DNA from: Candidatus Gorgyraea atricola
Lineage (GTDB): Bacteria; Omnitrophota; Gorgyraeia; Gorgyraeales; Gorgyraeaceae
Length of the DNA stretch: 64,000 bases
Assembly: GCA_030765235.1 (NCBI GenBank)
Contig: JAVCCW010000029.1
Span: forward strand, 12,939-76,938
Direction of reading: 5' to 3'
The position numbers were made by a program, and so were the translations under genes. Numbering within the stretch: the first letter of the stretch is position 1; each line of letters starts with the position of its first letter. The notes beneath the pieces were generated by a model. It worked only from the letters and a program-made list of their open reading frames with translations. It had not been told where the DNA came from and did not search any database. Shown piece by piece: positions 1-17,118 of the stretch.

Positions 1-1908
1 TTAACAGTCGCGGCGGATGTCGTAGACGCGGGCGGAGGCAGCATTATTCTGGCGGCGGAAGGCACTACAGCGGGGGATGACTTAACGATCAATGATGTCA
101 TAACAGCCTCTGGTGGTAATGGAAATATAACTCTTTACGCGGGAAATACCATTACTCATAATGGTGTTGCTGTTACGGCCGCGGGTTCAGGAACTGTTAA
201 TTATTACGCTGGCGTGGATTATAATAGCGGCACACCTCAAGCGGGACTTTCTACAGGCTTGAGTGACATAACTATGGCAGCTGCAGCTACAGCGGTTTCC
301 GGCAGTGGAAATATTACAATGACCGCTCCAGGGAGTATCGCGCTTAGCGCGATATCAACGACAGGCAATGCGACGGTAACAGCTGATGATACCACTTATA
401 TCGTTTCCAATTCTATCGGCGCGATCACTGAAAGCGCGGCTGAGGGCACAGCGAATATAACTGCCGCTACAGCGACGCTGCGCGCCGCGACAGGAGTAGG
501 CTCAGCCGATGATATCGAAACAAACATCACTGCTTTAGATGTTTTAAACTCGATTTCCAGCAATATAAACATAACTGAACTGGCTGCCGGCGGGGCATTA
601 GGTATTAATCGGGCAACCCAAAGCGCTCTTGGCGACATAACGATTCAAACACTTGATGGAACACTCACAGTGACAGCGGGGCAAAATGGTGTAAGCTTGA
701 CTACAGGGGCCTTACTTCTTAATGCCGCAGACGCTGGCGCAAGCGGTGATGATAATTTAGCGGTAAACGCGGCAGTTACCTCAACTACAGGCAAGGTAAA
801 TCTGGATGCCAGCAATGACGTAACATTTGGCGCTGCGGGAGACGTGACTACTACCAGCGGTGAGATCGAAGTCGCTGCTACTGACGCGATCACTATGACA
901 GACGGGGCAGTTCTTGATGCGGGAGATGATCAGATTGATATGGACGCGGATGAGGATATTACACTTGGCGGCTTGACAACAGTGCATACCGCGGATGACG
1001 CGATAGCGGTTACATCAGTTTCCGGCGGTATAGTGGATGGCGGCGATACAGATGTTGATATAGTCGCTAATACCGCTTCCGCGACAGTCGATCTGGATGC
1101 CGCGACGGGAATCGGCTCTGCCAATGCCCTTGAGACAACGATCTATAATCTTGAGGCAAACAATACGACATCCGGTGATATAAAGATCAATGAAACAGAC
1201 GCGATCAATCTGGTCGAGGTATTGGACAATATCACGGGCGGGGATATCGAGCTTGAGTCAGGCGGAGATATTACCTCGACGACTGTAACAGCGGGCAACG
1301 GTGTAACGCTTTATGCTAACGGCGGCAATATATATGATACTGCCGGAGGGCTTATAACAGCTGGAGCAAGTTCAAGCTTGAAGGCAACAGGTATTATAGG
1401 TACTGCCCTTGTGCCGTATAATCCCGTAGATGTTGATATAACAGGAGATCTCTGGGTAGGCGCTGGAGAAGAACAAAATGGTATCTCAGTGATCCTCCAG
1501 GGCGCGGTCAGATCACCTACGCATACTGAAAGGGTCGAGATATACAGTGATCCTATTGTTCCTCCCGGGATCGTCATGTTGAATAATCATTTAATGGGAG
1601 GCTCTAATTACGGAAGCGGCAGCGCTAATGGAAGCATATTGAGCGTGGGTTATGGGGCCTTACAACAGAGCGTAAATGATACTGTTGGTTTCTATAACTC
1701 GAAAAATCTTCAGCCATGGGGTTATCAGAATAGTTCACCCTGGATCAACAGCATGATGCCTGTCATAGACAATAATTTCCTGAACGGGCCCATGGTTATC
1801 GTCGATGGTTCACAGGTGGGAGTCATCGTAGTGCCTGAAGCTTTACGTATTCTTCCGCCAAGATTTTCGCCCGATAGTTATTATGTGATCCGAAGCAGTA
1901 AAAAGTAG
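1..1908 (+). CDS. Large repetitive exoprotein, C-terminal portion. The frame is open from nt 1, so the 5' end lies outside the window. Thr/Ala/Gly/Asp-rich beta-helix-like repeats.
   Basis: Frame 1 has no stop from position 1 to the TAG at 1906-1908. Repetitive 'GxGNIT...GSIAL/TADDAIT' segments resemble hemagglutinin-type or autotransporter-type beta-solenoid repeats. Confidence 0.5.
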   Translation, partial: LTVAADVVDAGGGSIILAAEGTTAGDDLTINDVITASGGNGNITLYAGNTITHNGVAVTAAGSGTVNYYAGVDYNSGTPQAGLSTGLSDITMAAAATAVSGSGNITMTAPGSIALSAISTTGNATVTADDTTYIVSNSIGAITESAAEGTANITAATATLRAATGVGSADDIETNITALDVLNSISSNINITELAAGGALGINRATQSALGDITIQTLDGTLTVTAGQNGVSLTTGALLLNAADAGASGDDNLAVNAAVTSTTGKVNLDASNDVTFGAAGDVTTTSGEIEVAATDAITMTDGAVLDAGDDQIDMDADEDITLGGLTTVHTADDAIAVTSVSGGIVDGGDTDVDIVANTASATVDLDAATGIGSANALETTIYNLEANNTTSGDIKINETDAINLVEVLDNITGGDIELESGGDITSTTVTAGNGVTLYANGGNIYDTAGGLITAGASSSLKATGIIGTALVPYNPVDVDITGDLWVGAGEEQNGISVILQGAVRSPTHTERVEIYSDPIVPPGIVMLNNHLMGGSNYGSGSANGSILSVGYGALQQSVNDTVGFYNSKNLQPWGYQNSSPWINSMMPVIDNNFLNGPMVIVDGSQVGVIVVPEALRILPPRFSPDSYYVIRSSKK

Positions 1909-3027: not shown

Positions 3028-3068
3028 AAGGCGAAGATTTCTCTAAAGGAATCTCCGCCTTTTTTATT
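3028..3068 (+). terminator. Intrinsic terminator-like hairpin plus T-run in the leader of the first repeat-protein gene.
   Basis: Stem AAGGCGAAGATT / AATCTCCGCCTT with one mismatch, followed by TTTTTTATTT. Confidence 0.45.
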
Positions 3069-3113
3069 TATAAAAACAGAAAGCGTTTACAAGTGATTCA
3101 AAAGGAGAATACC

Positions 3114-6100
3114 ATGAAGAAATTATTCGCAATTATGCTTACAGTATCAATTAGCTTATTTCAAATAATGCCGGTTCTAGCTGAACCGGTTTTTTTATCT
3201 GATAAGGACATGGATAGTGTAGTGGCAGGCTACATTGAAGAAAACACCCTGACCATGACAGATGATAGCCAGCGCGATTTAAAAGCTCTTAGCAATGTAA
3301 ATGATGTTGACTCAGCAGTAGCAGCGCAGTCAAACGTCACGTTTGGCGGATTTGATGTGGAAAGTTACAACAGCGCCGCAGTAGAAAATAATGATGCGGA
3401 TCCAGGCATAACATTATTAGAAAGTATAGAATCTAATAATTCCCTTAGCCTAACTGATTTTGCGCAGGCTGAACTCCTTGCGCTCAGCAATGTAAACTCT
3501 GTTGACTCTGCAAACGCGGTCCAGTCCAATATCACAGTGTGCTCACAGTTTCCTTTGAGCGAAAATAAAGCAGACGTAGTTAACATAGATGCTGATAGCG
3601 AAGAAGAGATAGACGCCATTAACACCCTTTCACTCTCAGGCAGTGCTCAGACTTCACTGCATGCCCTTAGCAACCTTAACTCAGTAGACTCAGCAGTGGC
3701 AGTACAGTCGAATGCGAATTTCTGCGGAGAGAGCGTAGTAAATTCTAACATCGCTTGTGTAGATAATTTTAATGGTGATGCGGGTGATGTAGATACCTTG
3801 GATGATAACCCGCATTCACTCTCGATCATAGACAATGCACAGGAAAACCTGGCAGCATTCAGTAATGTCAATGCAGTTGACTCAGCTGTGTGCGTACAGC
3901 TCAATACCTCTATTAATATAAGAGAGGACGCCACTAACACAAATGACGGCTATGCCACGAATAACTCCACGCATCAGGCCAACTACATGGATCGCGACAA
4001 TGACCTTTATATAGCTGGCAATGGCCAGGCAGGCACAAGCGGCATTGTAAGCATAAACGCGGTAGACTCCGCGGAACTCGCGCAGGTAAACATTACAGTC
4101 TTCAGCGGCACAATAGGCGTGATGGACACAAACATCGTGCGCATAGTTTTAAATGATGACGGCGTTACATCAGGAACAGACTGGGATACTGACACCAACA
4201 CCATGACGCTCACTGGCAATGCTCAGCAGGGCCTTATAGCGCTCCACAATGAAAACCTCGTGGACTCAGCAGCCACCATAGAAGGAAACTACGGCGCGTT
4301 TGGCTACAATGACTTTAGATTCAACGAGGCCTATCTTATTAATAAAGACAAGGACTCCTATATATACGCGTCAGTCAATAGAATGGATCTTTCAGAAAAT
4401 GCCCAAAAGGATGTCCAGGTCGTAAGTAACCTGAACGCAGTAGACTCTGCGCCTGGCGTACAGACAAACATTACTTATGATGCGCACTGGGCCATTGGCG
4501 AAAACTATGCTGAGGCTACTAATAATGACGGCACATCCAGCTATTGGACTGATACAGATAATTCGCTTACCATGTCTGGCAGCGCACAGGAAGACTTAAC
4601 AGCGCTCACAAGCACAAACTCAGTTGACTCTGCGTCTATGGTGCAGACAAACCTATTTGCCTTAACTGCCAGTATGTCAACCGCTGTGAATGAAGCAACT
4701 ATCCTAAATACAGACGGCAGTGCCAATGGCGACTCCTGGGGCATAACCTATAATGTACTGGATCTCTCAGGAGATTCCCAGAGAGGCCTTGTAGCACAGA
4801 GTAATCTTAATGAAGTAGATTCAGCTACCTTGGTCCAAACCAATATTACTGCTGAAGAGGAGCAGGGTACACTTTCTGTAATAAGCTCCTCAAATACAGC
4901 AGACGTGGATAATCTTGATATAGTAACTGAGGATCAAAATGGCTTGCGTTCCTATAATAAGCTTACCATGACTGATAATACCCAGAGATCTTTACATGCC
5001 TTGAGCAATATAAATAGCGTTGATTCTGCTAGTGCTGTGCAGTCTAATCTAACAGTTAATAGCTCCCTGCCACCTATTGACTCAGAGCTAGTAGGGCTCG
5101 AGCTTACTGGTTATGCGCCTCTAGCGCCTATCCAGACTGAGATAGTAGCGCTTGAACTAGCTGGTTTTACTCCTGGCGATGATATTGAGATCGCCTTTCC
5201 TATGATCACAGGTATTGAGCTAAGTGATTATACAGAAATAGGAGACGACATAACCTCTACTAACATTGCTACAGTAGACAATATTGATGGTACAGCATAC
5301 TGGATGGATGTGCCTGAAGGCGAGATAATGAATCTTTTGAAACTCTCAGGCAATAGCCAGAGGAATCTCAGCGCGCTCTCAAATCTCAACACAGTTGATT
5401 CAGCCAATGCAGTCCAGATCAACATCGTATACGGAAATGGCGCAGGTATCGCGTCAAGCAACACTGCTACAGTAAAGAATGACGATGGCTCTACTAATTT
5501 TATGGGTTCACTAGAAGACGGCGGCGTGAGTGATGACACAAATAGGCTTAGACTTGTAGATAATGTACAGAGAAAACTCGAGGCATTAAGCAATGCCAAT
5601 ACAGTAGATTCAGCTACAGCAGTGCAGGCAAATCTCGCTGTAGGCGTATCAAGCTCTACGCAGACCAATACCGCGGATGTCTTAAATCAGGGTAGAGATA
5701 TCCTGGGAGAAGACATGACAGACCCGAAGAATCGCTTGACCTTAAAAGACAATGCACAGAGAGGACTAACTGCGCTAAGTAACCTTAACTCAGTTGACTC
5801 TGCTAACACAGTCCAGTCCAATATTACTATAAACAATACTGAAGGAGAAGCAGGAGGCATTACAAATGTGAGCGTGAACAAGACATATGCAGCGTTTGAT
5901 ATAGACTGCAGGATATCTCGCGAAAGACGTCATGCACCTGATATTGAACCTTGCGTTGACATCTCTTGCTGCCCTATATGGTATCTTGGAATAGAGTCAG
6001 AGCCTGGCACAAGAAACTATGGTAATGATGCAAAGAATACACTTAAGCTTGAAGGTGAGGCCCAGATGAAACTTACCGCGCTCAGTAACCTCAATGCTGT

Positions 6101-6965
6101 TTCCAGCGCCAGCGCAGTGCAGTCAAATATCACTGCGAATAAGATAGGTACAGTCACAGGCCCGATTGAAAATTTCAGCCTGAACATAGCTTCTGTTGAG
6201 AATATAACTGAAGATGGAGATAATACACTTAAGCTGCAAAACAAGGCCCAGAAAGACCTGTTAGCGCTCAGTAATGCTAATAGCGTTGACTCTGCCAATG
6301 CAGTGCAGTCGAATATCAGTATCAATGGCTCAGAAAATATCAGCATAAACAAGGCTGATGTGTATAATTCCAGCGGGGACAATCTCTGGCCAGAGAAGAA
6401 AACTGATAAGCTCACTATCAAAAACCACGCCCAGGAGGATCTAACTGCGCTCAGTAACCTTAATACAGTCTCATCAGCTAATGCAGTACAGTCTAACATT
6501 ACCGCGAATAATGTTACAGGCAGCGCCCTTAATGTAAGCGTGAACATTGCGCAGGTAAAAAATGCTCGCGGCACAGGTGAAAATAAACTCATACTTAAAA
6601 ACAAGGCGCAAAGAGGACTCACAGCTCTCAGCAACGTAAACTCTGTAGAAAGCGCAAATGCTGTGCAGTCCAACATCAGTGTCACCTCAACTGAGGATGT
6701 AGAAGCATGCGTTTCCAATATCAGCGCGAACTTCGCGAATGTCGAGAATAAAGATGAGGACGAAAATGAAGCGGATAAGCTCAATACCTTGAGCCTATCT
6801 AACCATGCGCAGCAGAATCTCATGGCACTCAGCAACTTAAATACAGTAAGCAGCGCAACAGCTGTGCAGTCCAACGCCGCGGTATCAAACGCTGCAGGTA
6901 TAAATATCAGCATGAACAATGCCCGAGTAGTTAACTCAGGCAGTTTTAACAACATAAGCGATTAA
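3114..6965 (+). CDS. Secreted giant repeat protein, paralog A: 18 copies of the repeat 'L-x-L-x-[DG]-x-AQ-x-x-L-x-ALSNLN-x-VDSANAVQSNIT', with a Cys-rich central module.
   Basis: RBS AAGGAG then ATG at 3114 (the ORF track's first Met at 3093 is probably upstream of the true start). Signal peptide MKKLFAIMLTVSISLFQIMPVLA. Repeats counted directly in the translation. Central module is 'CVDISCCPIWYLGIESEPGTRNYG'. Confidence 0.8.
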   Translation: MKKLFAIMLTVSISLFQIMPVLAEPVFLSDKDMDSVVAGYIEENTLTMTDDSQRDLKALSNVNDVDSAVAAQSNVTFGGFDVESYNSAAVENNDADPGITLLESIESNNSLSLTDFAQAELLALSNVNSVDSANAVQSNITVCSQFPLSENKADVVNIDADSEEEIDAINTLSLSGSAQTSLHALSNLNSVDSAVAVQSNANFCGESVVNSNIACVDNFNGDAGDVDTLDDNPHSLSIIDNAQENLAAFSNVNAVDSAVCVQLNTSINIREDATNTNDGYATNNSTHQANYMDRDNDLYIAGNGQAGTSGIVSINAVDSAELAQVNITVFSGTIGVMDTNIVRIVLNDDGVTSGTDWDTDTNTMTLTGNAQQGLIALHNENLVDSAATIEGNYGAFGYNDFRFNEAYLINKDKDSYIYASVNRMDLSENAQKDVQVVSNLNAVDSAPGVQTNITYDAHWAIGENYAEATNNDGTSSYWTDTDNSLTMSGSAQEDLTALTSTNSVDSASMVQTNLFALTASMSTAVNEATILNTDGSANGDSWGITYNVLDLSGDSQRGLVAQSNLNEVDSATLVQTNITAEEEQGTLSVISSSNTADVDNLDIVTEDQNGLRSYNKLTMTDNTQRSLHALSNINSVDSASAVQSNLTVNSSLPPIDSELVGLELTGYAPLAPIQTEIVALELAGFTPGDDIEIAFPMITGIELSDYTEIGDDITSTNIATVDNIDGTAYWMDVPEGEIMNLLKLSGNSQRNLSALSNLNTVDSANAVQINIVYGNGAGIASSNTATVKNDDGSTNFMGSLEDGGVSDDTNRLRLVDNVQRKLEALSNANTVDSATAVQANLAVGVSSSTQTNTADVLNQGRDILGEDMTDPKNRLTLKDNAQRGLTALSNLNSVDSANTVQSNITINNTEGEAGGITNVSVNKTYAAFDIDCRISRERRHAPDIEPCVDISCCPIWYLGIESEPGTRNYGNDAKNTLKLEGEAQMKLTALSNLNAVSSASAVQSNITANKIGTVTGPIENFSLNIASVENITEDGDNTLKLQNKAQKDLLALSNANSVDSANAVQSNISINGSENISINKADVYNSSGDNLWPEKKTDKLTIKNHAQEDLTALSNLNTVSSANAVQSNITANNVTGSALNVSVNIAQVKNARGTGENKLILKNKAQRGLTALSNVNSVESANAVQSNISVTSTEDVEACVSNISANFANVENKDEDENEADKLNTLSLSNHAQQNLMALSNLNTVSSATAVQSNAAVSNAAGINISMNNARVVNSGSFNNISD

Positions 6966-6976
6966 TCGTAGACCCC

Positions 6977-7011
6977 TGTCATTGCGAGGCCCAGCCTTGT
7001 GTCATTGCGAG
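6977..7011. repeat. Two direct copies of TGTCATTGCGAG, belonging to the second palindromic repeat family (TGTCATT/AATGACA termini).
   Basis: Seen at 6977-6988 and 7000-7011. Related sequences occur at 11477-11500, 17211-17270 and 41511-41574. Confidence 0.4.
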
Positions 7012-7152
7012 CGAAGCGAAGCAATCTCAATAACAGGACGTAAACTCCCTATACCAGGCCTAAAAAGGTGGCCTTTAACCACCAACATGGGAGAGAGGCC
7101 TTAAAATAGATCGGTGAAACATGGTGAAGTTAAAAACAAGGAGGAGAAAGTA

Positions 7153-10100
7153 ATGAGAAAGTTAGTATCGATTATCGCAGCTTTAAGTATCATTTTCTCA
7201 GGCGCTATTTCTCCAGTATTAGCAGCTGAAGTCCTGACAGACGAAGGCTTGGACTCTATTGTTGCAGGCGACCTTCCAGTCGGCGCTACTTTAGAGAACA
7301 ATACCTTAGATCTAAAAGAACAATCTCAGAGGTTCTTCAAAGGTCTAAGCAATGCAAATACTGTAGATTCAGCAAATGCAGTACAGTCAAACGTTACTAT
7401 GACAGGTGGCGGTCTGGCTGTAAGTATGAACGCAGCTGATGTTGACAACTTGGACGGTTTGAATGATGATTATTATGGCAGAGAGCAGAACAATGATCTG
7501 AAATTAAAAGATGATGCACAGAGCGGTTCATCAGGGTATCCACCAGCTGATGTTGGACAGGATTTCTTCGCAGCTTTGAGCAATCTCAACACTGTTGACT
7601 CTGCTAATGCTATCCAGTCAAACATCACTGCTGGTAATGATGACAAATTCAGCGGCAACAATGCTGATGTATTGAATGATGATGGTACGACTACTTGTCA
7701 CGTAGAGACTAACAATCTGATGATACTCAAAGACCAGGCACAGAATAGGCTTTGGGCACTCAGCAATGTTAACACAGTTGATTCAGCAAATGCTGTCCAG
7801 TCAAACATCACTGTGAATACAGGTGTTACTGGTGATAATGTAGCTGATGCTACAAGTCGTAACTGTGCTATAGTAGAGAATGCAGATGGCACATCAGTTG
7901 CAGAACCACTGCCAGAAACTGAACCTGCAAAACTGGTTAACAACAAGCTGGTCATAGACAATACTGCTCAGGCAGAACTCATGGCACTAAGCAACTTAAA
8001 CACAGTTGATTCTGCTAATGCAGTTCAGTCAAACATCAGTATTCATGGCGCAGATAATAACAATCAAAACCAGGCAGAGGTGCTTAATGAAGATGGTATA
8101 GCACCAACTGGTCAGAAGATTTTGAACAACACCTTAAAGATCAAGGATCAGGCACAGCATGATTTAATTGCACTCTCGAACTTGAATGCAGTTGATTCAG
8201 CAAGTGCTGTTCAGTCTAACATTACCTATGCTCATTGTAAAAACATCAATACTAACAAGGCTGATGTTGAGAACAATGATGGTGGAGTTGGAGTGGGTGT
8301 AGTAGATTCAAGCGGCAACCCAATGGATCCAGTAGTAGATAACAATGACGCACTTTCTCTTGGGACAAATGTCCAGGGTGGCCTTACTGCGCTTAGCAAT
8401 ATCAATTCAGTTGATTCTGCTAATGCAGTTCAGTCAAATATCACTGTTAATGACAGTGATTATGAAGGAACAGCAGGGCCAACAAAGGTGTTGAATATTA
8501 ACAAGAACATAGCTGGTGTTTTAAACACTGATGCTGATCCAGAGACAGATGGTGGAAATAATTCCATACTGCTCGGAGGCTTAGCTCAGAGCGGACTTAT
8601 GGCACTCAGCAATATTAATACCATTGATTCTGCTAACACAGTCCAGTCCAATGTCACTGTAAATAATACAGTTGGCGATGTTGGAGAGATTCACAACATA
8701 AGTAAGAATGAGGCCTTTGCATCATTTGACCTTTACTACCATGGTGGTTGCTGTGGCGGAAATGGTATAGATGATGGCGGATGTGTTGACATTAACTGTC
8801 CACCAATAAGTTGCATAGGTATAATTTCTGAACCTTGCACAAAGAACTATGCAGGTGATGGGAATAATATCCTTACACTTGAGGGTAGTGCACAGATTGG
8901 CTTAATGGCACTAAGTAACCTCACAGCTGTTTCCAGTGCAAGCGTTATACAATCCAACATTACTGCCAATGGTATTGGTAAGGAAGATGATGGATCTGGA
9001 ACAATGGTTGGAAGCGCAAATAATGTCAGAAACTTCAGTGAGAACATAGCTTCTGTTTGGAATTCTAGTGGAACAGGAGACAATACTCTTGAGTTAATGG
9101 ACAATGCACAGCAAGGTCTTTGTGCGCTCAGCAATGTTAACACAGTTGATTCAGCAAATGTTGTTCAGTCAAATATTACTGTAACAGCAGATGATGTGAA
9201 TCTTTGTGCTGAAGTTGGCTGGAATGTGGACTTTGATCGGCTTGTTTTAGGTCTTTGCCCGCAGGGCGACTCATTACTTGCTATTCAGTATCCTGATCTA
9301 GGAGAAATAGGACCAGATCTCTTAGGTGCTCTTAACAATAACATGTTTACATCTGCCACTATCAATGGTTTTGCACCTGATACAGAAAGCTGGATTTTCT
9401 TCAGGAGTTCATTAGGCAATCCGTCATGGGTCAATTGCTTAAAGCATATGTTTAAAGGTAAAGCGCTTTTAAACTACAGCATGAACGCAGCTGATGTCTA
9501 TGATGCAAGCGGTGACTCTCCGGAAGACAGTACAACTGATTTACTTACCATTGAAGTCAGCGCTCAGAAAAATCTAAGCGCATTGAGCAATCTCAACACA
9601 GTTGGTTCTGCAAATGCAGTTCAGTCAAATATAACTGTAAACTGGGTTGGCGGTGAGCTTAACAATGGACTTGTCAGCATCAATGCAAATCTTGCTAAAG
9701 TCCAAAATGCTGCTGGTATTGGAGAAAATAAGATGAAGCTAGCAGGCAGTGCCCAGGAAGAGCTAACAGCATTGAGTAATCTTAACACGGTTGAAAGCGC
9801 AAATGCAGTTCAGTCCAACGTCACACTTACCAGGGCATCAGGCGCAAGCGAAACATGCTTTGGTTGTGAAGGTGCTGCAATGGCATGTACTTTCAATTTG
9901 AATTCTGCTGAGGTTAGAAATTATGATAAGGTTAGAGATGTTGTTCAAGAAACTCCTATAGATGTACCTGATAGGGTTAATTCTTTGAAACTATCTGGTA
10001 TGGCACAGCAAAACCTTATCGCATTAAGTAACCTTAATGCAGTAAATTCAGCAACAGCTGTTCAGTCAAACATAACAGTGAGCAGCGGCATAGGCATGAA

Positions 10101-10155
10101 TGTTAGTGTCAATACCGCATGCGTATCAAACGTAGGTAGAAGTTTTGCAGATTAA
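7153..10155 (+). CDS. Secreted giant repeat protein, paralog B: 12 copies of the same ALSNLNTVDSANAVQSNIT-type repeat, with a Cys-rich central module.
   Basis: RBS AAGGAGG then ATG at 7153. Signal peptide MRKLVSIIAALSIIFSGAISPVLA. N-terminal motif 'LTDEGLDSIVAG' is shared with paralog A ('LSDKDMDSVVAG'). Module 'CVDINCPPISCIGIISEPCTKNYAG' is homologous to that of paralog A. Confidence 0.8.
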   Translation: MRKLVSIIAALSIIFSGAISPVLAAEVLTDEGLDSIVAGDLPVGATLENNTLDLKEQSQRFFKGLSNANTVDSANAVQSNVTMTGGGLAVSMNAADVDNLDGLNDDYYGREQNNDLKLKDDAQSGSSGYPPADVGQDFFAALSNLNTVDSANAIQSNITAGNDDKFSGNNADVLNDDGTTTCHVETNNLMILKDQAQNRLWALSNVNTVDSANAVQSNITVNTGVTGDNVADATSRNCAIVENADGTSVAEPLPETEPAKLVNNKLVIDNTAQAELMALSNLNTVDSANAVQSNISIHGADNNNQNQAEVLNEDGIAPTGQKILNNTLKIKDQAQHDLIALSNLNAVDSASAVQSNITYAHCKNINTNKADVENNDGGVGVGVVDSSGNPMDPVVDNNDALSLGTNVQGGLTALSNINSVDSANAVQSNITVNDSDYEGTAGPTKVLNINKNIAGVLNTDADPETDGGNNSILLGGLAQSGLMALSNINTIDSANTVQSNVTVNNTVGDVGEIHNISKNEAFASFDLYYHGGCCGGNGIDDGGCVDINCPPISCIGIISEPCTKNYAGDGNNILTLEGSAQIGLMALSNLTAVSSASVIQSNITANGIGKEDDGSGTMVGSANNVRNFSENIASVWNSSGTGDNTLELMDNAQQGLCALSNVNTVDSANVVQSNITVTADDVNLCAEVGWNVDFDRLVLGLCPQGDSLLAIQYPDLGEIGPDLLGALNNNMFTSATINGFAPDTESWIFFRSSLGNPSWVNCLKHMFKGKALLNYSMNAADVYDASGDSPEDSTTDLLTIEVSAQKNLSALSNLNTVGSANAVQSNITVNWVGGELNNGLVSINANLAKVQNAAGIGENKMKLAGSAQEELTALSNLNTVESANAVQSNVTLTRASGASETCFGCEGAAMACTFNLNSAEVRNYDKVRDVVQETPIDVPDRVNSLKLSGMAQQNLIALSNLNAVNSATAVQSNITVSSGIGMNVSVNTACVSNVGRSFAD

Positions 10156-10177
10156 TTAGCACCTAAAGTAACATTGT

Positions 10178-10203
10178 GTAGGGCAGGTTTAAACCTGCCC
10201 TAC
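10178..10203. repeat. REP palindrome variant: GTAGGGCAGGTTTAAACCTGCCCTAC.
   Basis: Perfect 26-nt palindrome centred on GTTTAAAC. Confidence 0.75.
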
Positions 10204-10216
10204 ACAAGCACACATA

Positions 10217-10252
10217 ACTTTACATTTGAAGCAAGACCTTAAATGTAAAGTT
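10217..10252. repeat. Second hairpin: AACTTTACATTT ... AAATGTAAAGTT.
   Basis: 12-bp inverted repeat. The TTTACA/TGTAAA hairpin type recurs next to the REP copy at 11414-11434. Confidence 0.4.
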
Positions 10253-10278
10253 AAACATTGAAATAGAGGTGAATTGAC

Positions 10279-10671
10279 ATGAAGAAGTTAGTAGCATTAA
10301 CAATTAGCCTATTAGTAGTTGCGATGGCTATACCTTGTTTTGCTGGAAGCGCTCGTATCCTCAGTGATGAGGAGCTTGATATGGTTTCAGCTAAAGGTGT
10401 TGATCAGCCAGAGGTGATTTGGGAGATCCTCCCTATGGTCTCAGGCAACATGGAAGATTTCTTTGCTAATGGCGTACCGTATGACCTTGGTAGTGGTAAC
10501 ACAGTTTTTACCATGGGCGGGAACGCGCAGCAGAATCTACAAGCCTTAAGCAATATAACTGCGGTTAATAGCGCAGTCGGAGTCTTGATAAATATCACTG
10601 TTGTTAACGGCAATCTTACTGGGACAGTTAATCAGACCAACAACGCCCAGATAACCAACTTCGTATTCTAG
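10279..10671 (+). CDS. Small secreted single-repeat paralog of the giant repeat proteins (candidate minor/nucleator subunit).
   Basis: Signal peptide, N-terminal 'ILSDEELDMVSAKG' family motif, one repeat 'GGNAQQNLQALSNITAVNSAVGVLINIT', and a C-terminal aromatic residue. Confidence 0.7.
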   Translation: MKKLVALTISLLVVAMAIPCFAGSARILSDEELDMVSAKGVDQPEVIWEILPMVSGNMEDFFANGVPYDLGSGNTVFTMGGNAQQNLQALSNITAVNSAVGVLINITVVNGNLTGTVNQTNNAQITNFVF

Positions 10672-10696
10672 TAGGCCAGGTTTAAACCTGGCCTAC
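10671..10696. repeat. REP palindrome, consensus copy.
   Basis: GTAGGCCAGGTTTAAACCTGGCCTAC. Confidence 0.85.
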
Positions 10697-10716
10697 GTGG
10701 CACCAGGTGGAATATT

Positions 10717-11412
10717 ATGAGAAAGCATAACAGTATATTTATATTTGTCTTTATTTTAGCGATGTCTTTAGTAGCAGAGCCTTGCTTTGCTGCTAGTATT
10801 GGCATTGCAGGCAGGATAAACAAGAACGTAAAGAGTCTCAAAGAGATACGTCATCAGAATATTGAAGCTCAGAGTCTGGATTACTCCTGTGGTCCGGCGT
10901 CTCTAGCTACTCTTCTGAGCTATTACTTCGGCGATAAAGTCACCGAAGTAGACGTACTCGAGACGCTCCTTACGACCTGCGACATTGAAAAGGTAAAGGC
11001 AAAGAAGGGCTTTTCGCTCTTAGACCTGAAACGTTTTGCCCAGTCCCGCGGCTACGATGTAGTCGGCTATAAGATGGACCTGGAGTTTCTCGTTGAGCTC
11101 GATAAGCCAGTCTTGATCCCCGTGAGTATAAAGGACTACTCGCATTTTGTTATATTCCGGGGGCTAGAGGGCGATCGCGTGTTCATAGCTGACCCAGTAC
11201 TGGGCAACATGACCATGCGCTACGAGAAGTTCGAGAGGATCTGGGAAGGCGGCATAGGCCTGGTGCTTAATGGCAGAGACGATGAGAAACTAAAAGACTC
11301 TCCTTTAAGGATAAGCGGCCAAGAAGAGGCAGTTTTCGCGGACGCTACGACTGTACGAAGGCTATTCGGAGTAAATTCCCTAGGCACCATCTTCGCGGAT
11401 GGCGAGTTCTAA
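10717..11412 (+). CDS. Periplasmic peptidase C39-like domain protein (stand-alone, with a signal peptide).
   Basis: Signal peptide. Catalytic-Cys motif 'QSLDYSCGPASLATLLSYYFG' and a downstream His 'DYSHFVIF', as in double-glycine/C39 peptidase domains. Confidence 0.6.
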   Translation: MRKHNSIFIFVFILAMSLVAEPCFAASIGIAGRINKNVKSLKEIRHQNIEAQSLDYSCGPASLATLLSYYFGDKVTEVDVLETLLTTCDIEKVKAKKGFSLLDLKRFAQSRGYDVVGYKMDLEFLVELDKPVLIPVSIKDYSHFVIFRGLEGDRVFIADPVLGNMTMRYEKFERIWEGGIGLVLNGRDDEKLKDSPLRISGQEEAVFADATTVRRLFGVNSLGTIFADGEF

Positions 11413-11413
11413 A

Positions 11414-11459
11414 CTTTACACTTTAAGTGTAAAGTAGGCCAGGTTTAAACCTGGCCTAC
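11414..11459. repeat. TTTACA/TGTAAAG hairpin followed by a consensus REP.
   Basis: CTTTACACTTTAAGTGTAAAG then GTAGGCCAGGTTTAAACCTGGCCTAC. Confidence 0.8.
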
Positions 11460-11476
11460 AGTTACTGTTGTAATGG

Positions 11477-11496
11477 ATTCCCGCTTTCGCGGGAAT
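11477..11496. repeat. Palindrome ATTCCCGC-TTTC-GCGGGAAT (second repeat family core).
   Basis: Perfect 8-bp stem. An expanded version is at 17211-17266. Confidence 0.5.
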
Positions 11497-11550
11497 GACA
11501 AAGTTAACGGTTGACATATACCTATAATTTGTGGTATAAAGTCTATAGCC

Positions 11551-12465
11551 ATGAGACATTTGATGGTATTTTTTATTCTCTGGAGTAGTATGTTTCTTGC
11601 TGCACCCATCAGCATAGGCGCTAGCCTGGCTGAAGAGCAAAGGGAAATAGAGGGGGTAGTAGTAGGGTATTACTCTGCCAAGATCAGCTGGGCAACAGAT
11701 GAGCCAGCTACTTCACAGGTAGACTATGGCACATCAGGGTTTATATATGAACAGAGTTCCCCAGAGCGCAACAGCCTATTAATCAATCACGAGATAATCC
11801 TGAGCAACCTCAAGCCATCTACCCTATATCATTACAGGATAAGGAGTAAGGACGCTTTTGGCAATGAGGGTGTGAGCCAGGACCTTACATTTAAGACTCT
11901 GGATTTCTCCATAGCTGATAATAAAGCACCCACTATATCTAATATAAAGGTAGCCTCTCTTGCAGGCGTAAAAGAGCCTACCTATTTATCAGATGAGGAG
12001 GCAGCTGCTATTATAGGTGCAGGCCCGGCAGCGCCTAAAGGCAATTTCCCGGGTGGTAAGATAATTGCAGTAGCAAAGGCAAAACCAAAAGCAGAACCAA
12101 AGGCAGAGACAAGGCATATACAGGAGGGATCTGAGCCTGCAGCTTCAGGCATGATCCATTCAGCAGGTCAGCTTACTAAGCACGAAGCGCCAGTGGAAAA
12201 GACGCTTGTGCAAAAGGGCGGATTACTCATGCCTAAAGGCACATGGCAGTATGAGCCAAGTTTTGCCTATGCTCATACATCAGCAAATCGTATTGCCATA
12301 AGCGGATTTACAGTGCTGCCGGTTCTAATAATAGGAAGCATTTCCGTAGACGAAGTAAAAAGGGACATACTTATACAAACCAATACCTTTCGCTATGGGT
12401 TATTTAATAATTTCCAGGTAGAAGTAAAGGTCCCATCCCATATAGGTATCAATACGAGCGTATAA
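11551..12465 (+). CDS. Secreted FN3-like domain protein with an Ala/Pro/Lys-rich linker. It appears to be the N-terminal part of a frameshifted FN3 + outer-membrane beta-barrel gene.
   Basis: Signal peptide. 'KPSTLYHYRIRSKDAFGNEG' is FN3/purple-acid-phosphatase-N-like. Linker 'KAKPKAEPKAE'. C-terminal beta-strand-like segments run into the next ORF. Confidence 0.55.
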   Translation: MRHLMVFFILWSSMFLAAPISIGASLAEEQREIEGVVVGYYSAKISWATDEPATSQVDYGTSGFIYEQSSPERNSLLINHEIILSNLKPSTLYHYRIRSKDAFGNEGVSQDLTFKTLDFSIADNKAPTISNIKVASLAGVKEPTYLSDEEAAAIIGAGPAAPKGNFPGGKIIAVAKAKPKAEPKAETRHIQEGSEPAASGMIHSAGQLTKHEAPVEKTLVQKGGLLMPKGTWQYEPSFAYAHTSANRIAISGFTVLPVLIIGSISVDEVKRDILIQTNTFRYGLFNNFQVEVKVPSHIGINTSV

Positions 12466-13043
12466 CCACAGCAGACAATATAGAAACTACAGATAATCTG
12501 TCTGGACTTGGTGATATTGAGGCAGGATTATATAAGCAGATAGCGTTTGAGCATGGATGGGTACCAGATCTAATAGCTGGGGTCAGTGTAAAGTCAGACA
12601 GCGCCGATAAAAGCCCTTATGAGAATCCAGGAGATATTGGCTTAGGAACAGGGCACTGGGCAGTAAAAGGGAGCCTGGTGTGGGTAAAGTCAAGCGACCC
12701 GGCGATTGTCTTTGGTGGATTGAACTATACATGGAATATGGAAGATGATATTACAAATTACGGCAAGATAAATCCTGGAAATACTATTGGATATTCTCTT
12801 GGAATGACCTTTGCCTTGAATTACCAGGTAGCATTAAACCTGGGCGTGGACCAGAGCGTTACCGAAAAGATGAAAATAGATGACACTCCAGTAAATGGCT
12901 CATTTACTAATGTAGCCAGTTTTAAATACGGTTTTGTCTGGTCTGTAAACAAGAACTTTTCCTGTGATGTATCCGCAACACACGGCCTAACAGAAGACTC
13001 ACCTGACATGGTCCTGGAAGTCCGCTTCCCGTATACCTTCTAA
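12411..13043 (+). CDS. Outer-membrane beta-barrel C-terminal domain (MetA/transporter-like), ending in Phe. It continues the previous ORF in a different frame.
   Basis: Frame 0 is open from 12411, overlapping the 304-aa ORF, whose stop is at 12463-12465. Amphipathic alternating strands and a C-terminal 'RFPYTF'. Confidence 0.55.
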   Translation, partial: FPGRSKGPIPYRYQYERITTADNIETTDNLSGLGDIEAGLYKQIAFEHGWVPDLIAGVSVKSDSADKSPYENPGDIGLGTGHWAVKGSLVWVKSSDPAIVFGGLNYTWNMEDDITNYGKINPGNTIGYSLGMTFALNYQVALNLGVDQSVTEKMKIDDTPVNGSFTNVASFKYGFVWSVNKNFSCDVSATHGLTEDSPDMVLEVRFPYTF

Positions 13044-13136: not shown

Positions 13137-13162
13137 GTAGGCCAGGTTTAAACCTGGCCTAC
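13137..13162. repeat. REP palindrome, consensus copy. A half-copy, GTTTAAACCCGGGCTAC, lies at 13102-13118.
   Basis: GTAGGCCAGGTTTAAACCTGGCCTAC. Confidence 0.85.
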
Positions 13163-13286: not shown

Positions 13287-14459
13287 ATGAAGAAAGTATG
13301 TAAAATTGTATTAAGTTTGTGCTTTTTGGCTTCCATTCTTGTAATTAACTCCACATTATATGCTGCAGAAGGATTAAAGATAGGCGATGCAGAGATCATC
13401 CCTTGGGGTGAAGTGCGACTTCAGTATGATGACAACATATTCCTGGATTCTGATGATGAAAAGGATGACATTATAGTCACGCTTGTGCCAGGTGTATCTC
13501 TTGAATGGCCATTCAGTGATAATCTTCTAAAGCTTGACTATCACGCGGAGATCACAGAGTTTATGGATTATGGCTCAAATGATGCCACGAACCATTATTT
13601 CTCCGGAGACCTGGAGGTAGAATTGCAGGACCTTACCTTTAATATATATGATGACTATAAGCATGTATATGAAAGGGCGTCCACAGAGGATACCTTAAGG
13701 ATCAAGAGGGAAGACAATACTATAGGTATCAGGGCTGGCCTGGAAAAGGATCGGCTTGGTGTACAGCTTGGTTATGAGCATTTTACTCGTGATTACAAAG
13801 ACGAAGATACTTATGATATTTATGACAGAAAAGAGGATATTTATTCCGCGGTCCTTACCCACCAGACATTCGCAAAGACAAAACTTCTGGCAGAATATGA
13901 TTTCGGGCAGATCAGGTATGATAGTTCCACCCGTTCAGACTCAGACTACCACCAGTTTCTTGTTGGCGCAATAGGCGAACTGACTCCAAAAACTACAGCT
14001 ACTGTAAAAGCAGGTTATCAGTTCAGGGAGTACGATGATAGCACCCAACCTGATTTTGATACAGGAGTGCTTTACGCGGATCTGACACACGAATTTTCAG
14101 AAAAAGATGCTCTTAAGCTTTCACTGACCAGGACAGCTTACGAGTCCACTTATGATATAAATAATTATTACACTGTAGAGAATGTAACCGCGATATACGA
14201 CCACTATTTCACTGCAAAACTACTTGGTTTTGTAAACGGCATATACCAGGTCAATTCCTATCCTCGAGAGACTACAGAAGGGACTGAGACACACAAGAGA
14301 GAAGACAGGTATGCTTCTTTGGGCGCTGGTTTCAGGTATTATATGCAAGAATGGCTGACATTTACTATGCAGCTCGAGCATATAGACAGGGATTCTAATT
14401 TTGATACATTTGATTACGAACAGAATCTAGCCACACTTACTGCAAAGGCGGTATTCTAA
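13287..14459 (+). CDS. Outer-membrane beta-barrel protein of the EPS export locus (PEP-CTERM-locus-type putative OMP).
   Basis: Signal peptide, Asp/Tyr-rich amphipathic strands and a C-terminal '...AKAVF'. Located immediately upstream of wza/wzc. Confidence 0.6.
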   Translation: MKKVCKIVLSLCFLASILVINSTLYAAEGLKIGDAEIIPWGEVRLQYDDNIFLDSDDEKDDIIVTLVPGVSLEWPFSDNLLKLDYHAEITEFMDYGSNDATNHYFSGDLEVELQDLTFNIYDDYKHVYERASTEDTLRIKREDNTIGIRAGLEKDRLGVQLGYEHFTRDYKDEDTYDIYDRKEDIYSAVLTHQTFAKTKLLAEYDFGQIRYDSSTRSDSDYHQFLVGAIGELTPKTTATVKAGYQFREYDDSTQPDFDTGVLYADLTHEFSEKDALKLSLTRTAYESTYDINNYYTVENVTAIYDHYFTAKLLGFVNGIYQVNSYPRETTEGTETHKREDRYASLGAGFRYYMQEWLTFTMQLEHIDRDSNFDTFDYEQNLATLTAKAVF

Positions 14460-14460
14460 C

Positions 14461-15027
14461 TTGCGATATTTAACCTTTCTATTAGCGCTAACTCTAGTAC
14501 TGAATCCTTTCACACTCCTTGCTGAAGAGTACAAGGTCGATACAGGGGATGTGCTTCTTATCACTGTGTATGAGCAGGCAGACCTTACTACTAAGGTGCG
14601 CGTTAGCTCAAAAGGCGAGATCACCTTTCCTCTGATTGGTACTGTAAATGTAAAGGACCTCACAGTGGAAGAGATAGAGAAAAAGATAATGGTCTCACTT
14701 AAAAAAGACTACCTCGTAGACCCTCAGGTCAATGTCTTTATAGAAAAATATACAGAGAAGAAGGTATTTGTAATGGGTTTTGTAAATAGGCCAGGCGAAT
14801 ATGAGCTTTTTAAAGACCGTCCTACCACAGTGCTTGAGGCAATTACTATGGCAGGCGGTTTTAAAGAAGGCGCAGCTCAGAACGGAACCAAGGTACTGCG
14901 CGTAGATAATGGCCAAGAACTCACCATAGCTATAAAAGTAACAGACATCACGAAAAAGGGCGATAAAGAAAAGGACATCCCTGTAAAACCAGGAGATATT
15001 GTTGTCGTGCCAGAGAGTTTCTTTTGA
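14461..15027 (+). CDS. wza: Polysaccharide export protein, Wza/KpsD/EpsA family (Poly_export + SLBB).
   Basis: 'PGDIVVVPESFF', 'VDTGDVLLITVYEQ' and 'GEITFPLIGTVNVKDLTVEEIEKKI'. TTG start. Confidence 0.8.
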   Translation: MRYLTFLLALTLVLNPFTLLAEEYKVDTGDVLLITVYEQADLTTKVRVSSKGEITFPLIGTVNVKDLTVEEIEKKIMVSLKKDYLVDPQVNVFIEKYTEKKVFVMGFVNRPGEYELFKDRPTTVLEAITMAGGFKEGAAQNGTKVLRVDNGQELTIAIKVTDITKKGDKEKDIPVKPGDIVVVPESFF

Positions 15028-15057: not shown

Positions 15058-17118
15058 ATGATCACAGATGTAACTAAGAACATACATATGCGTGATTACC
15101 TTAATATAATAAGTCGCAGGAAATGGCTCGTCATAAGCTTTTTCCTGATCACTGTTACGCTCGTGACAGTGACATCTTTCATGCAGAAAAAGGTCTACAG
15201 GGCCACTGCCACAGTAATAGTGGATGTGGAAGGCCCGAGTGTCCTGGCGGTAAAGGATGTTGTTAAGCTCGGTGAGACCAATTATTTTGCATACCGCGAT
15301 TACATAGAGACCCAGCAGGAGATAATAAGGGGCAGGCGCACTGCCTACCGTGTCATGAAGAACCTGGGATTGATCAAAAAAGAAGAGTTTAGCGAATCCA
15401 AAGACCCTATACAGACACTTCTGGAAAAGGTAAAGGTAGAGCTATTGCGTGATACAAGGATCATCAATGTACGCGCAGAAGATAACGATCCTAATCTGGC
15501 CAGCCGCATCGCGAATGAGTTTGCCAAGGTCTATGTTGATTCCAACATAGCTATGAAGATGAAGATGTCGCAGGATGCTCAGGATTGGTTAGGAAAAGAG
15601 GTTGATATCCAGAAGAAAAAGGTAAGAGAAGCAGAACTGAAACTTCAGGCTTACAAGGAACAAAATAGTATTGTTTCCATAGAGAACCAGGAGGCCATGA
15701 TCGATGATGGCCTGGCTAAACTGAATTCCAGTTATCTGGCAGCGCAGGAGCGAAGGATAGGCGCAGAGACTACCTATAATAGCCTTATTGATAGCAGTGG
15801 AAATGTGGCCATGGAAAATCTGCCATCGCTTTTAACAGACAATAAGTCCTTACAGTTATTAAAGGACGATTACCTGAAGCAAGAGGCGCTTTTAGTCGAA
15901 TATAAGAAGATCTACAAGTATAAGCATCCTAAGATGATAAAGCTCTCAGAGAATATAGATTATCTTAAATCTCGCCTGAAGAGCGAGATAGGGAATGAAT
16001 ATAATAGCGCAGTCGCGGAGGAAAAAAAGTTTAAGATGGCTCTTGCCGAACAAAAGAAAGAGGCCCTGGGATTAGAGCGTAAGATCATAGAGTACAGTGC
16101 CTTAGATAGAGAAGTAGAGACCAATGACCGTATTTTAGAGATCGTACTCAATAGACTCAAAGAGACATCTATCTCCAGCCAGATACAGGCGAATAATGTA
16201 CGAGTGCAGGATCTGGCAGAGCCTCCCATAAAACCAATAAAACCAAAGAAAAGAATAAATATCATACTTTCCATGATCGTGGGTTTGATGGGCGGCATAG
16301 TCCTCGCGTTTTTCAGGGATTATATGGACATCAGTTTAAAAAATCCCAATGAGATAGCCAGTGTGCTTCAGATACCTTTACTAGGGTCTGTGCCTAAGGT
16401 TAAATTAGACGGGAATCGTATCAGGAAAAAGGCTGATATCGACCGTGTTGTTGAAAAGGATTCGGCTTCACTGGCTTCAGAGGCCTACCGTTCAATAAGG
16501 ACAAATCTTTTATTCTCGCTAAACCATTCAGGCTCTTCAAAGAGTATAGTTGTAACAAGTTCTGTACCCAAAGAAGGAAAAAGCATTACTGCGGTGAATC
16601 TCGCGCTCATGATAGCTAATAGTGGAGAAAGAGTGCTTTTAGTAGACGCTGACATGAGAAGGCCAAGACTTCATACAGTATTTAATGATGATAATTCAAT
16701 AGGCCTTACGCAGTTTTTATCAAAAGAAGCGGACTTTGAAAGTGTAGTCAAACCTTCCGGCATAGATAATCTAAGCATAGTCACTTCAGGAGGCACTATT
16801 GGCAGTTCCGCGGAATTGATCTCTTCAGAACAGATGAAAATTTTCATAGAAAAGGCATCATCTGGATTTTCAAAGATCATCTTTGATACACCACCTATAG
16901 CCTTAGTTACAGACGCGGCATTGCTCTCGAGTATCTGTACAGGGGTGCTCCTGATAGCTGAAGGCGGCAGGGCAACAAAGGATTTATTGATAAAATCCAA
17001 AGGACTCTTAGAAAAGGTAGACGCGAAGATCTTAGGCGTCATAGTCAATAATATATCTCTTACCAGCGATAGTTCCTACCAGCAGTATTACTACGGAAAG
17101 ACTTACGGTAAAACTTAA
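15058..17118 (+). CDS. wzc: Chain-length determinant / BY tyrosine autokinase (Wzc/EpsG-like).
   Basis: Two transmembrane segments, a coiled-coil periplasmic region, Walker A 'VTSSVPKEGKSITAVNLA', 'LLVDADMRRP', Walker B 'IFDTPP' and a C-terminal Tyr cluster 'YQQYYYGKTYGKT'. Confidence 0.85.
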   Translation: MITDVTKNIHMRDYLNIISRRKWLVISFFLITVTLVTVTSFMQKKVYRATATVIVDVEGPSVLAVKDVVKLGETNYFAYRDYIETQQEIIRGRRTAYRVMKNLGLIKKEEFSESKDPIQTLLEKVKVELLRDTRIINVRAEDNDPNLASRIANEFAKVYVDSNIAMKMKMSQDAQDWLGKEVDIQKKKVREAELKLQAYKEQNSIVSIENQEAMIDDGLAKLNSSYLAAQERRIGAETTYNSLIDSSGNVAMENLPSLLTDNKSLQLLKDDYLKQEALLVEYKKIYKYKHPKMIKLSENIDYLKSRLKSEIGNEYNSAVAEEKKFKMALAEQKKEALGLERKIIEYSALDREVETNDRILEIVLNRLKETSISSQIQANNVRVQDLAEPPIKPIKPKKRINIILSMIVGLMGGIVLAFFRDYMDISLKNPNEIASVLQIPLLGSVPKVKLDGNRIRKKADIDRVVEKDSASLASEAYRSIRTNLLFSLNHSGSSKSIVVTSSVPKEGKSITAVNLALMIANSGERVLLVDADMRRPRLHTVFNDDNSIGLTQFLSKEADFESVVKPSGIDNLSIVTSGGTIGSSAELISSEQMKIFIEKASSGFSKIIFDTPPIALVTDAALLSSICTGVLLIAEGGRATKDLLIKSKGLLEKVDAKILGVIVNNISLTSDSSYQQYYYGKTYGKT

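Follow-up and report, generated by a model that had tools for sequence, protein, structure and literature searches.

The window analysed here is the whole 64,000-nucleotide stretch of Candidatus Gorgyraea atricola (Omnitrophota) DNA, and the subject of this analysis is a gene cluster located between positions 3093 and 13043. Five consecutive + strand genes, which the open reading frame (ORF) listing and its translation resolve into six ORFs, encode three related proteins with signal peptides (A, B and C), a stand-alone C39 peptidase and an outer-membrane protein (OMP). Together, they probably constitute a FapD/FapF-type two-step secretion module that exports new Asn/Ser/Ala-rich acidic repeat proteins to the cell surface, beside an exopolysaccharide (EPS) export locus. 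The module combines a known type of machinery, that of FapD and FapF, with a new cargo family: it is neither a categorically new system nor Fap proper. A first-pass annotation, made from the DNA letters and their ORFs, had described seven consecutive + strand genes forming an undescribed system. The genes are consecutive and on the + strand, but there are five of them, and the novelty applies to one part of the system: the cargo is undescribed in the databases searched, whereas colocalised fapD/fapF homologs in five further phyla had already been noted in a 2018 review, the accessible part of which does not mention cargo (PMC6173800).

The peptidase, the transporter and their recurrence across genomes

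The peptidase gene (10717..11412, + strand) encodes a stand-alone C39 cysteine peptidase of the FapD/FilB type, 231 aa (25 kDa) in length, with a Sec signal peptide and a peptidase domain only. The protein matches Pfam Peptidase_C39 with an E value of 1.3e-19, in agreement with the periplasmic, stand-alone C39-like peptidase of the first-pass annotation. Its best NCBIfam matches are FilB (2.7e-38; 131.9 bits, cut-off 475) and FapD (1.3e-35; 122.7 bits, equivalog cut-off 330), and the closest solved structure is the LahT150 double-glycine-motif protease domain (6mpz, E 4.5e-9). Gln52, Cys58, His143 and Asp159 are invariant across 22 aligned homologs (35-69% identity); these residues are the canonical C39 catalytic set, and the Cys/His dyad expected of such an enzyme is intact among them. 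The C39 homologs mostly end in a conserved GEF (window 11404-11412), which follows a variable tail and lies outside the peptidase domain. FapD itself is periplasmic, and its active-site Cys is required for FapC secretion (PMC5557850).

The gene for the FapF-family outer-membrane transporter (11551..13043, + strand) is split as sequenced into ORFs at 11551-12465 and 12678-13043. Its product starts with a signal peptide and an FN3-like domain (approximately nt 11674-11898; Pur_ac_phosph_N, E 6.6e-9); a leader-like motif and an Ala/Pro/Lys linker come next, and a conserved pre-barrel segment leads into the barrel. Database searches used an approximate 497-aa repair of this protein that is two residues off at the junction. 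With the repaired OMP as query, the NCBIfam FapF model gives 6.5e-39 and 133.9 bits (cut-off 700), matched over profile positions 78-420 of 420, and the FilC model gives 52.1 bits (cut-off 630). Residues 225-497 match the FapF crystal chains 5o65/5o67/5o68 (E 1.5e-28), and this match crosses the frameshift junction uninterrupted. The combination of FN3, linker and C-terminal barrel given in the first-pass annotation is borne out by these matches. Judged by sequence comparison, the C39 peptidase and the OMP are homologous to FapD and FapF, and not merely analogous to them.

The earlier supposition that the OMP gene required repair also proved correct. Its frameshift is due to a 5-bp tandem duplication, TCCCA TCCCA (12431..12440, + strand), and not to a homopolymer slip; when one TCCCA copy is removed, the product reads ...EVKVPYRYQYERITT..., in agreement with the intact orthologs at loci L083 and L084 (476 and 507 aa). 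The duplication could be a real inactivation, a population variant or an assembly error, and because the transporter gene carries it, the module may be inactive in this genome unless the assembly is at fault. If the duplication is real, the transporter would not be made, A, B and C would not be exported, and the locus would be decaying or inactive here: the gene is split into two ORFs at exactly this site, while both orthologs are intact. We consider such decay unlikely. The other genes of the cluster are all intact, and repeat ORFs of 3.9 kb and 3.0 kb would gain stop codons quickly if they were unselected; in addition, the source is the consensus of a metagenome-assembled genome (MAG), which could contain a local misassembly or a minority variant.

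One genome per GTDB species was scanned with a C39 profile, giving at least 581 confirmed relatives among the 600 pattern matches listed; the locus counts given here rest on the best 80 loci of these at least 581 relatives. The 80 loci span Omnitrophota, Planctomycetota, Acidobacteriota, Alpha-, Beta- and Gammaproteobacteria, Thermodesulfobacteriota and other 'delta' lineages, Nitrospirota, Verrucomicrobiota and Campylobacterales. A FapF-like OMP is encoded at 73 of them, typically immediately downstream of the C39 gene. At approximately 35 of the 80, C39 is immediately preceded by an ORF for a protein of 120-200 aa, in which a signal peptide and a leader motif are followed by a C-terminal unit (L.L.g.AQQNL.AL.NiNAVNS.vnVLlNLNvnI.S.vG...Q.N) alignable with the one unit of protein C, and larger upstream proteins with two or three units are present at many loci. 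As read from these sequences, a cassette of repeat protein(s), mini protein, C39 and FapF-like OMP recurs across many phyla.

The closest long-contig relative among the matches listed (L083, C39 69% identical) has the same gene order as the window. It begins with a repeat protein (partial, with at least 9 units), a 139-aa mini protein, C39 and an intact FN3 + barrel OMP, which are followed by a BBP2_2 barrel, a short Poly_export protein, a Wzz/kinase protein, an HD-GYP protein and a Wzy_C/TPR protein. Because L083 keeps the order of the window from the repeat protein through the EPS genes and HD-GYP, the gene set can be regarded as co-conserved; the occurrence of the mini-protein/C39/OMP cassette in many phyla points the same way.

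The repeat proteins and their leader-like motif

Protein A (3114..6965, + strand) is 1283 aa in length when counted from ATG 3114, within an ORF (3093-6965) that opens at GTG 3093; protein B (7153..10155, + strand) is 1000 aa from ATG 7153, within an ORF (7114-10155) that opens at GTG 7114. The two ATG codons are the likely starts; the resulting lengths of 1283 and 1000 aa are those of the top two matches in the protein library described below. Mini-protein C (10279..10671, + strand) has 130 aa; behind its signal peptide and leader-like motif, a short variable region leads to a single repeat unit at the C-terminus. The Candidatus Gorgyraea atricola MAG encodes a protein identical to C. A typical signal peptide followed by a common N-terminal motif is present in all three of the three proteins. 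Mature A and B contain 13% Asn, with Ser/Ala/Thr abundant and aromatics scarce, and both are very acidic (net charge of -111 for A and -73 for B).

A profile built from the repeats identifies 18 full copies in A, 12 in B and one in C (per-copy E 1e-13 to 1e-23), exactly reproducing the numbers given in the first-pass annotation. The core of approximately 21 residues described there is too short: the conserved unit is approximately 37 aa (xNxLxLxxxAQxxLxALSNLNxVDSAxAVQSNITV) and is followed by a variable stretch and then by a second submotif, SxNxAxVxNxDG. Successive repeats mostly start 59-77 aa apart, and a few inserts measure 100-150 aa. DNA identity among the 111-nt repeat cores has a median of 55% and a maximum of 72%. 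Because identity is this low, the repeat array is judged ancient and kept by selection on the protein, and a recent expansion or an assembly artefact is ruled out.

Searches of Pfam and NCBIfam returned no match for A, B or C and nothing meaningful for five related small proteins; against PDB sequences, the repeat profile produced chance armadillo matches alone and no relative of A, B or C. When a profile of 30 window repeats was scored against 1.84 billion representative proteins (E <= 1e-3), 67 proteins were matched. Only two of these are many-repeat forms, namely the clusters of A and B themselves (19 and 13 stretches, respectively), and the remainder are either two-unit proteins of approximately 300 aa or small proteins that have one unit or two. 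The multi-repeat form (12-18 units) is confined to this Omnitrophota lineage and is nearly unique. The small-protein family of which C is a member is widespread, its genes lying immediately upstream of those for C39 peptidases: a search with the family profile found 112 proteins, all with 'hypothetical protein' wherever a source name is given and none with a Pfam domain. No description of the A/B/C cargo family was found in the literature searched, coverage of which is incomplete and does not amount to proof of absence.

Most Omnitrophota relatives of A and B (L003-L006, proteins P0128-P0163) are approximately 300 aa or 900 aa in length and have a unit close to the N-terminus and another right at the C-terminal end. 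The linkers between the two units are long and low in complexity, being either Ser/Thr/Ala/Asp-rich or Pro-rich. This architecture would suit head-to-tail intermolecular pairing. A and B themselves have in common a Cys-rich non-repeat insert with the pattern CVDIsCcPI...GI.SEP.T.NY..D (A, 5880-6029, residues ~930-979; B, 8722-8859, residues ~537-582), which lies at the equivalent place in both proteins, five units before the C-terminus, and holds nearly all of their cysteines. Each also has a second long non-repeat insert: that of A (5061-5324, residues ~657-744) has short internal repeats of its own (ELVGLELTGYAP / EIVALELAGFTP / MITGIELSDYTE), and that of B (9187-9531, residues ~692-806) is approximately 115 aa, hydrophobic and Trp-containing.

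Directly after the predicted signal-peptide cleavage site, A, B and C share the motif L-[ST]-D-x-x-[LM]-D-x-[VI]-x-A-[GK]. In A, the motif is LSDKDMDSVVAG (3195..3230, + strand), which starts five residues past the predicted cleavage site between VLA and EP; in B, it is LTDEGLDSIVAG (7234..7269, + strand). Both are supported by sequence, alignment and family logo. In C, the motif is LSDEELDMVSAK, followed by G (10360-10395, + strand; sequence and alignment). The stretches spanning the three leaders are EPVFLSDKDMDSVVAGYIEENT (A), AEVLTDEGLDSIVAGDLPVG (B) and GSARILSDEELDMVSAKGVDQP (C). Counted back from the small pair, L is found at -12, S/T at -11, L/M at -7 and V/I at -4. C39 peptidases recognise the double-glycine leader LSxxELxxIxGG, and the A/B/C motif, which has the spacing of this leader, looks like a member of the same type. 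The first-pass annotation had correctly noted an N-terminal motif shared with the 130-aa paralog but had missed its double-glycine-leader character.

The motif is also kept in the homologs of protein C. For a census at the 80 loci, same-strand ORFs within approximately 6 kb of the C39 gene were searched with a permissive form of the pattern, preceded by a hydrophobic stretch. This gave 97 matches at 51 of the 80 loci, in many phyla, with the column consensus P-x-P-L-[ST]-D-A-Q-[LM]-D-x-V-[TS]-A-G-G. The match rate near C39 is 5.6 times that of all other ORFs at the same 80 loci, a ratio obtained with a loose pattern that includes chance matches and in which several 'far' matches are true members misclassified through overlapping ORFs.

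Canonical GG motifs were found in four ORFs that flank FapD-like genes at Fap-like loci. Two are small ORFs of Photobacterium sp. DA100 (L086): LTDDEMSSLRGG in the ORF immediately after C39 (5675-6196) and LTEAFMTHSRGG in a nearby small ORF (3810-4172). The third is in Aeromonas caviae FapE (LADGELAHLRGR; L082, 5605-6252), and the fourth is in Cupriavidus metallidurans CH34 (KLDDVRGG; L085, 4351-4878). The GG motif lies approximately 15 residues downstream of the predicted signal peptide in both Photobacterium ORFs and in Aeromonas, and approximately 60 in Cupriavidus. Two of these four ORFs end in ...NVLIQNAT.(I/L)N..., a style that recalls the A/B/C unit. FapE is also the one Fap protein found to be missing its first ~70 residues (PMC5557850, Rouse et al.). 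Acinetobacter FilA, a DUF6160 protein, begins SMDDAALSAATGQ, with a similar motif after the signal peptide; when the small-protein family was compared with FilA using hhalign, just 14 residues (the leader) aligned, at an E value of 0.03, and there is no significant homology. The motif is a specific candidate for what FapD-class peptidases recognise, and cleavage may take place there. A conserved double-glycine-type leader behind a Sec signal makes the question of the FapD substrate directly testable, and this is the most useful result of the analysis.

A leader-like motif is also present inside the OMP: LSDEEAAAIIGAG (residues 146-158; 11986..12024, + strand) lies between the FN3-like domain and the linker, within the stretch YLSDEEAAAIIGAGPAAP. 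Among the FN3-bearing Omnitrophota orthologs (L083, L084 and L001), the motif is conserved in the forms VADEELDDIIVAG, ISDEEARSIVAAG and LSDKEADAIVAAG, and it was not found in the OMPs of the other phyla examined. It could be a docking or processing site for the C39 peptidase; cleavage of FapF by FapD near GG motifs has been suggested by Rouse et al. (PMC5557850). These observations raise the alternative that C39 leaves the cargo leaders uncut, the motif of A, B and C being a targeting or chaperone-binding signal and the true substrate being the transporter linker motif or another protein. Conservation of the linker motif in this clade, the possible processing of FapF and the presence of Ala-Lys, not a small pair, at -2/-1 of protein C are all in keeping with this alternative. 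However, the OMP motif is limited to FN3-bearing Omnitrophota OMPs, whereas the cargo motif is found at 51/80 loci; the latter also has the known C39 recognition spacing, and the catalytic residues of the peptidase are invariant. An uncut leader seems decidedly unlikely to us.

Proposed export route and comparison with known systems

Export by two-step secretion could proceed as follows. Proteins A, B and C, as their typical signal peptides suggest, would cross the inner membrane via Sec. The periplasmic C39 peptidase would bind the leader segment and cut after it, licensing or handing over the unfolded cargo, which would then cross the outer membrane through the FapF-family barrel; this transport role is proposed by analogy with FapF, to which the barrel is homologous. 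The peptidase may also dock on or process the transporter at the leader-like motif of the latter. Outside the cell, the units of approximately 37 aa, which are Asn/Gln/Ser-rich and alternate between small/polar and hydrophobic residues, might stack into a beta-rich fibre or surface layer, with the one-unit protein C as a possible nucleator, cap or pilot. Stacking is the least supported of these steps.

The first-pass annotation had mapped the cluster one-to-one onto the Fap operon (fapABCDEF in Pseudomonas, where FapF is a barrel of 12 strands that forms trimers). As in Fap, a Sec-exported stand-alone C39 and a FapF-family barrel, homologous to FapD and FapF, are encoded side by side; Asn/Gln-rich imperfect repeat proteins and a small paralog are the predicted cargo; and a small protein with an N-terminal GG-like motif resembles FapE of the Aeromonas fap operon. 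Unlike Fap, the cluster has neither a FapA homolog nor a further ORF able to be FapA, and it has no FapE homolog (small-protein profile against Aeromonas FapE, hhalign E 0.46). The FapE gene sits between fapD and fapF, whereas here C39 is followed by the OMP after a gap of only 139 bp. The A/B/C repeat is unrelated to the FapC/FapB repeat GN-x-G-N-x2-AG-x2-NQQ-x-N (hhalign against Aeromonas FapC, E 0.38), as had been surmised, and belongs to no described family in Pfam, NCBIfam or PDB. There are 18 and 12 repeats here against 3 in Fap, and the host belongs to the Omnitrophota. An FN3-like domain and an Ala/Pro/Lys linker stand where FapF has an N-terminal coiled coil (a comparison made with no coiled-coil predictor run), and both C39 (122.7 vs 330 bits) and the OMP (133.9 vs 700 bits) score far under the equivalog cut-offs. 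What survives of the one-to-one mapping is the homology of C39 and the OMP with FapD and FapF.

The Fil system of Acinetobacter baumannii (NCBIfam 'putative pilus system') has the same order of cargo, C39 and FapF-like OMP. FilB is the top NCBIfam match of the C39 peptidase (2.7e-38), and FilA shares the post-signal-peptide motif. It differs in that FilA has DUF6160, whereas A, B and C are without a Pfam domain; in that the matches to FilB (131.9 vs 475 bits) and FilC (52.1 vs 630 bits) are far under the cut-offs; and in that the genes past filC in Acinetobacter are without a counterpart here. Peptidase-containing ATP-binding cassette (ABC) transporters (PCATs; LahT, ComA and PCAT1) have in common with the module the peptidase fold, the catalytic residues and the leader spacing of hydrophobic/small residues. 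In contrast to the PCATs, the C39 peptidase here is periplasmic and has no ABC transporter fused to it, a Sec signal peptide precedes the leader so that the latter is not itself the N-terminus, the residue at -2 is usually Ala, and export would be via an outer-membrane barrel.

In its logic, the cluster also resembles curli (CsgA/CsgB/CsgG), with a major repeat subunit, a small paralog (a possible nucleator), a dedicated outer-membrane channel and a biofilm-matrix context. No homology to curli was detected, however: A, B and C have no curlin repeat or any Pfam match, the channel is FapF-like, and no CsgG-like lipoprotein channel, CsgE or CsgF was found in the cluster using Pfam. RTX, curli and S-layer readings were rejected, as there was no motif or domain match. 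PEP-CTERM cargo was also rejected, as the C-termini (...SGSFNNISD, ...VGRSFAD and ...ITNFVF) are without a PEP motif or transmembrane helix; a weak PEP-CTERM-system affinity is seen only in the neighbouring EpsL-like barrel.

Several results weigh against the proposal that this is a FapD/FapF-type module exporting A, B and C. The substrate of FapD itself was never established (PMC5557850, PMC6173800). No homology of A, B or C to FapC, FapB or FapE could be detected. At -2/-1, double-glycine leaders have Gly-Gly (or GA/GS), whereas A and B have Ala-Gly there and C has Ala-Lys. The transporter gene is frameshifted in this genome by the 5-bp duplication, and EPS genes stand beside the cassette at 0/80 of the more distant loci. 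Structure prediction with AlphaFold2 belongs on the same side. A 4-repeat block of A, modelled with a 7-row in-register paralog alignment, has a mean predicted local distance difference test (pLDDT) score of 40.5, with each core drawn as one long low-confidence strand. Protein C, modelled with 112 homologs, has a mean pLDDT of 53.5 and is mostly coil, with a short helix of low confidence at residues 30-35, on the leader motif. Low monomer pLDDT would be compatible with a cargo that stays unfolded until export, and the strict i/i+2 alternation in the unit fits beta-strands. Neither property is proof of a solenoid or amyloid, and the amyloid or beta-solenoid nature of the cargo is the least supported element of the proposal.

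In a second alternative, the machinery is the same, A and B are monomeric or loosely associated acidic surface adhesins or a cell coat, possibly for host attachment of the ultra-small, host-dependent Omnitrophota cell, and C is a secretion pilot or anchor and not a nucleator. AlphaFold2 yields no confident solenoid; A (net -111) and B (net -73) are extremely acidic; variable spacers and long non-repeat and Cys-rich inserts separate the units; and relatives mostly have two units, N- and C-terminal, with long low-complexity linkers between them. CsgA and FapC are, moreover, richer in Gly than A and B. Omnitrophota are described as largely host-dependent nanobacteria (PMC10066038). Against these points, a conserved unit with strict alternation, together with a one-unit paralog, has the look of nucleated stacking systems, a lineage-conserved EPS locus surrounds the module, and FapF carries amyloid subunits in the sole studied case. 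We regard adhesins or a coat as somewhat improbable.

Beyond the preferred reading, that of FapD/FapF-type secretion of a new cargo, a more far-reaching proposal can be put forward tentatively. Periplasmic FapD-family peptidases may recognise and cleave at L-[ST]-D-x-x-[LM]-D-x-V-[TS]-A-G-G, a signal that has long been sought, and this leader motif may define a general 'Sec, C39, FapF-type barrel' pathway (in Omnitrophota, Acidobacteriota, several Pseudomonadota classes and others) that serves unrelated cargo, with Fap and Fil as special cases. The ALSNLN/AQQNL unit would then be a new self-stacking, amyloid-like block multiplied to 12-18 copies in this Omnitrophota lineage, and the FN3 pro-domain would be removed or docked on by the same protease. 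We consider this proposal as a whole possible, but would not call it probable.

At least one large cargo family accompanies FapD/FapF pairs; it has neither a Pfam domain nor an informative name in the databases searched, and its members occur in soil Acidobacteriota, marine Gammaproteobacteria, Omnitrophota and other groups. As a route to surface and matrix proteins, Fap-type secretion may be far broader than the Pseudomonas amyloid case suggests. A and B, whose genes stand at the start of an EPS locus, are candidates for the major surface structures of uncultured, ultra-small and possibly host-attached Omnitrophota.

Genomic context

The cluster heads a long same-strand EPS locus that runs on to at least 36 kb in the window, in keeping with the EPS exporter previously placed next to it; this locus is concerned with both export and biosynthesis. 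The adjacent export genes encode a BBP2_2/EpsL-like barrel of 390 aa (13287-14459, + strand), a short Wza-like protein of 188 aa (14461-15027, + strand), the L083 ortholog of which has Poly_export and SLBB domains, and a chain-length/tyrosine-kinase-like protein (15058-17118, + strand). The locus also includes two Wzy_C proteins, a flippase, glycosyltransferases, an acetyltransferase, a deacetylase and a UDP-glucose dehydrogenase. The pairing of a 188-aa Wza-like protein with a separate EpsL-like barrel matches descriptions of 'class 3' outer-membrane polysaccharide export (OPX) proteins, which are short and depend on a porin encoded apart from them (PMC9603273). In the case of GfcD, a FapF-like barrel has been proposed to be connected with the export of polysaccharide (PMC9603273). 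Because EPS genes are absent next to the cassette at the 80 loci and present in close relatives only, the EPS link of the module is taken to be lineage-specific.

Two proteins with HTH_17 and HD-GYP domains bracket the cluster, as stated in the first-pass annotation: one is encoded upstream (1976-2797, + strand) and the second at 17323-18081, with a syntenic equivalent in L083. Both match Pfam HD_5 and contain HHExxDGxGYP. The N-terminal domain of each is an HTH_17 (excisionase/MerR-like) and not a receiver domain, which suggests that these proteins are transcription factors linked to cyclic di-GMP (c-di-GMP).

A 26-bp perfect palindrome, GTAGGSCAGGTTTAAACCTGSCCTAC (GTAGGCCAGGTTTAAACCTGGCCTAC), is present in four copies within the cluster (10178-10203, 10671-10696, 11434-11459 and 13137-13162). 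Further copies are located in intergenic gaps at 17280-17305, 41532-41557, 51868-51893, 55031-55056, 55063-55088 and 56655-56680, giving 10 intergenic copies in the window vs 0 expected by chance. Variants of the palindrome preserve pairing via compensatory changes (GGG/CCC), and it looks like either a repetitive extragenic palindromic (REP)-like element or an mRNA-end hairpin.

Upstream of gene A, a good sigma-70-like promoter (TTGACA-17-TAATAT with a TG extension) is followed by a hairpin and T-run (2922-2950 and 3030-3065). The hairpin and T-run, approximately 50 nt before the gene A start, resemble an intrinsic terminator and could be a leader attenuator. No Rfam family, riboswitches included, was found in window 1-21000 at E <= 0.1.

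At the beginning of the window (1-1908, + strand), frame 1 is open from base 1. The ORF called at 214 (564 aa) covers the C-terminal part of a larger protein whose start lies upstream of the window. This protein has no match in Pfam or NCBIfam; it is Gly/Thr/Ala/Asp-rich and looks like a beta-helix repeat protein. Giant proteins have been reported for the class Gorgyraeia (bioRxiv 10.64898/2026.06.07.730766).

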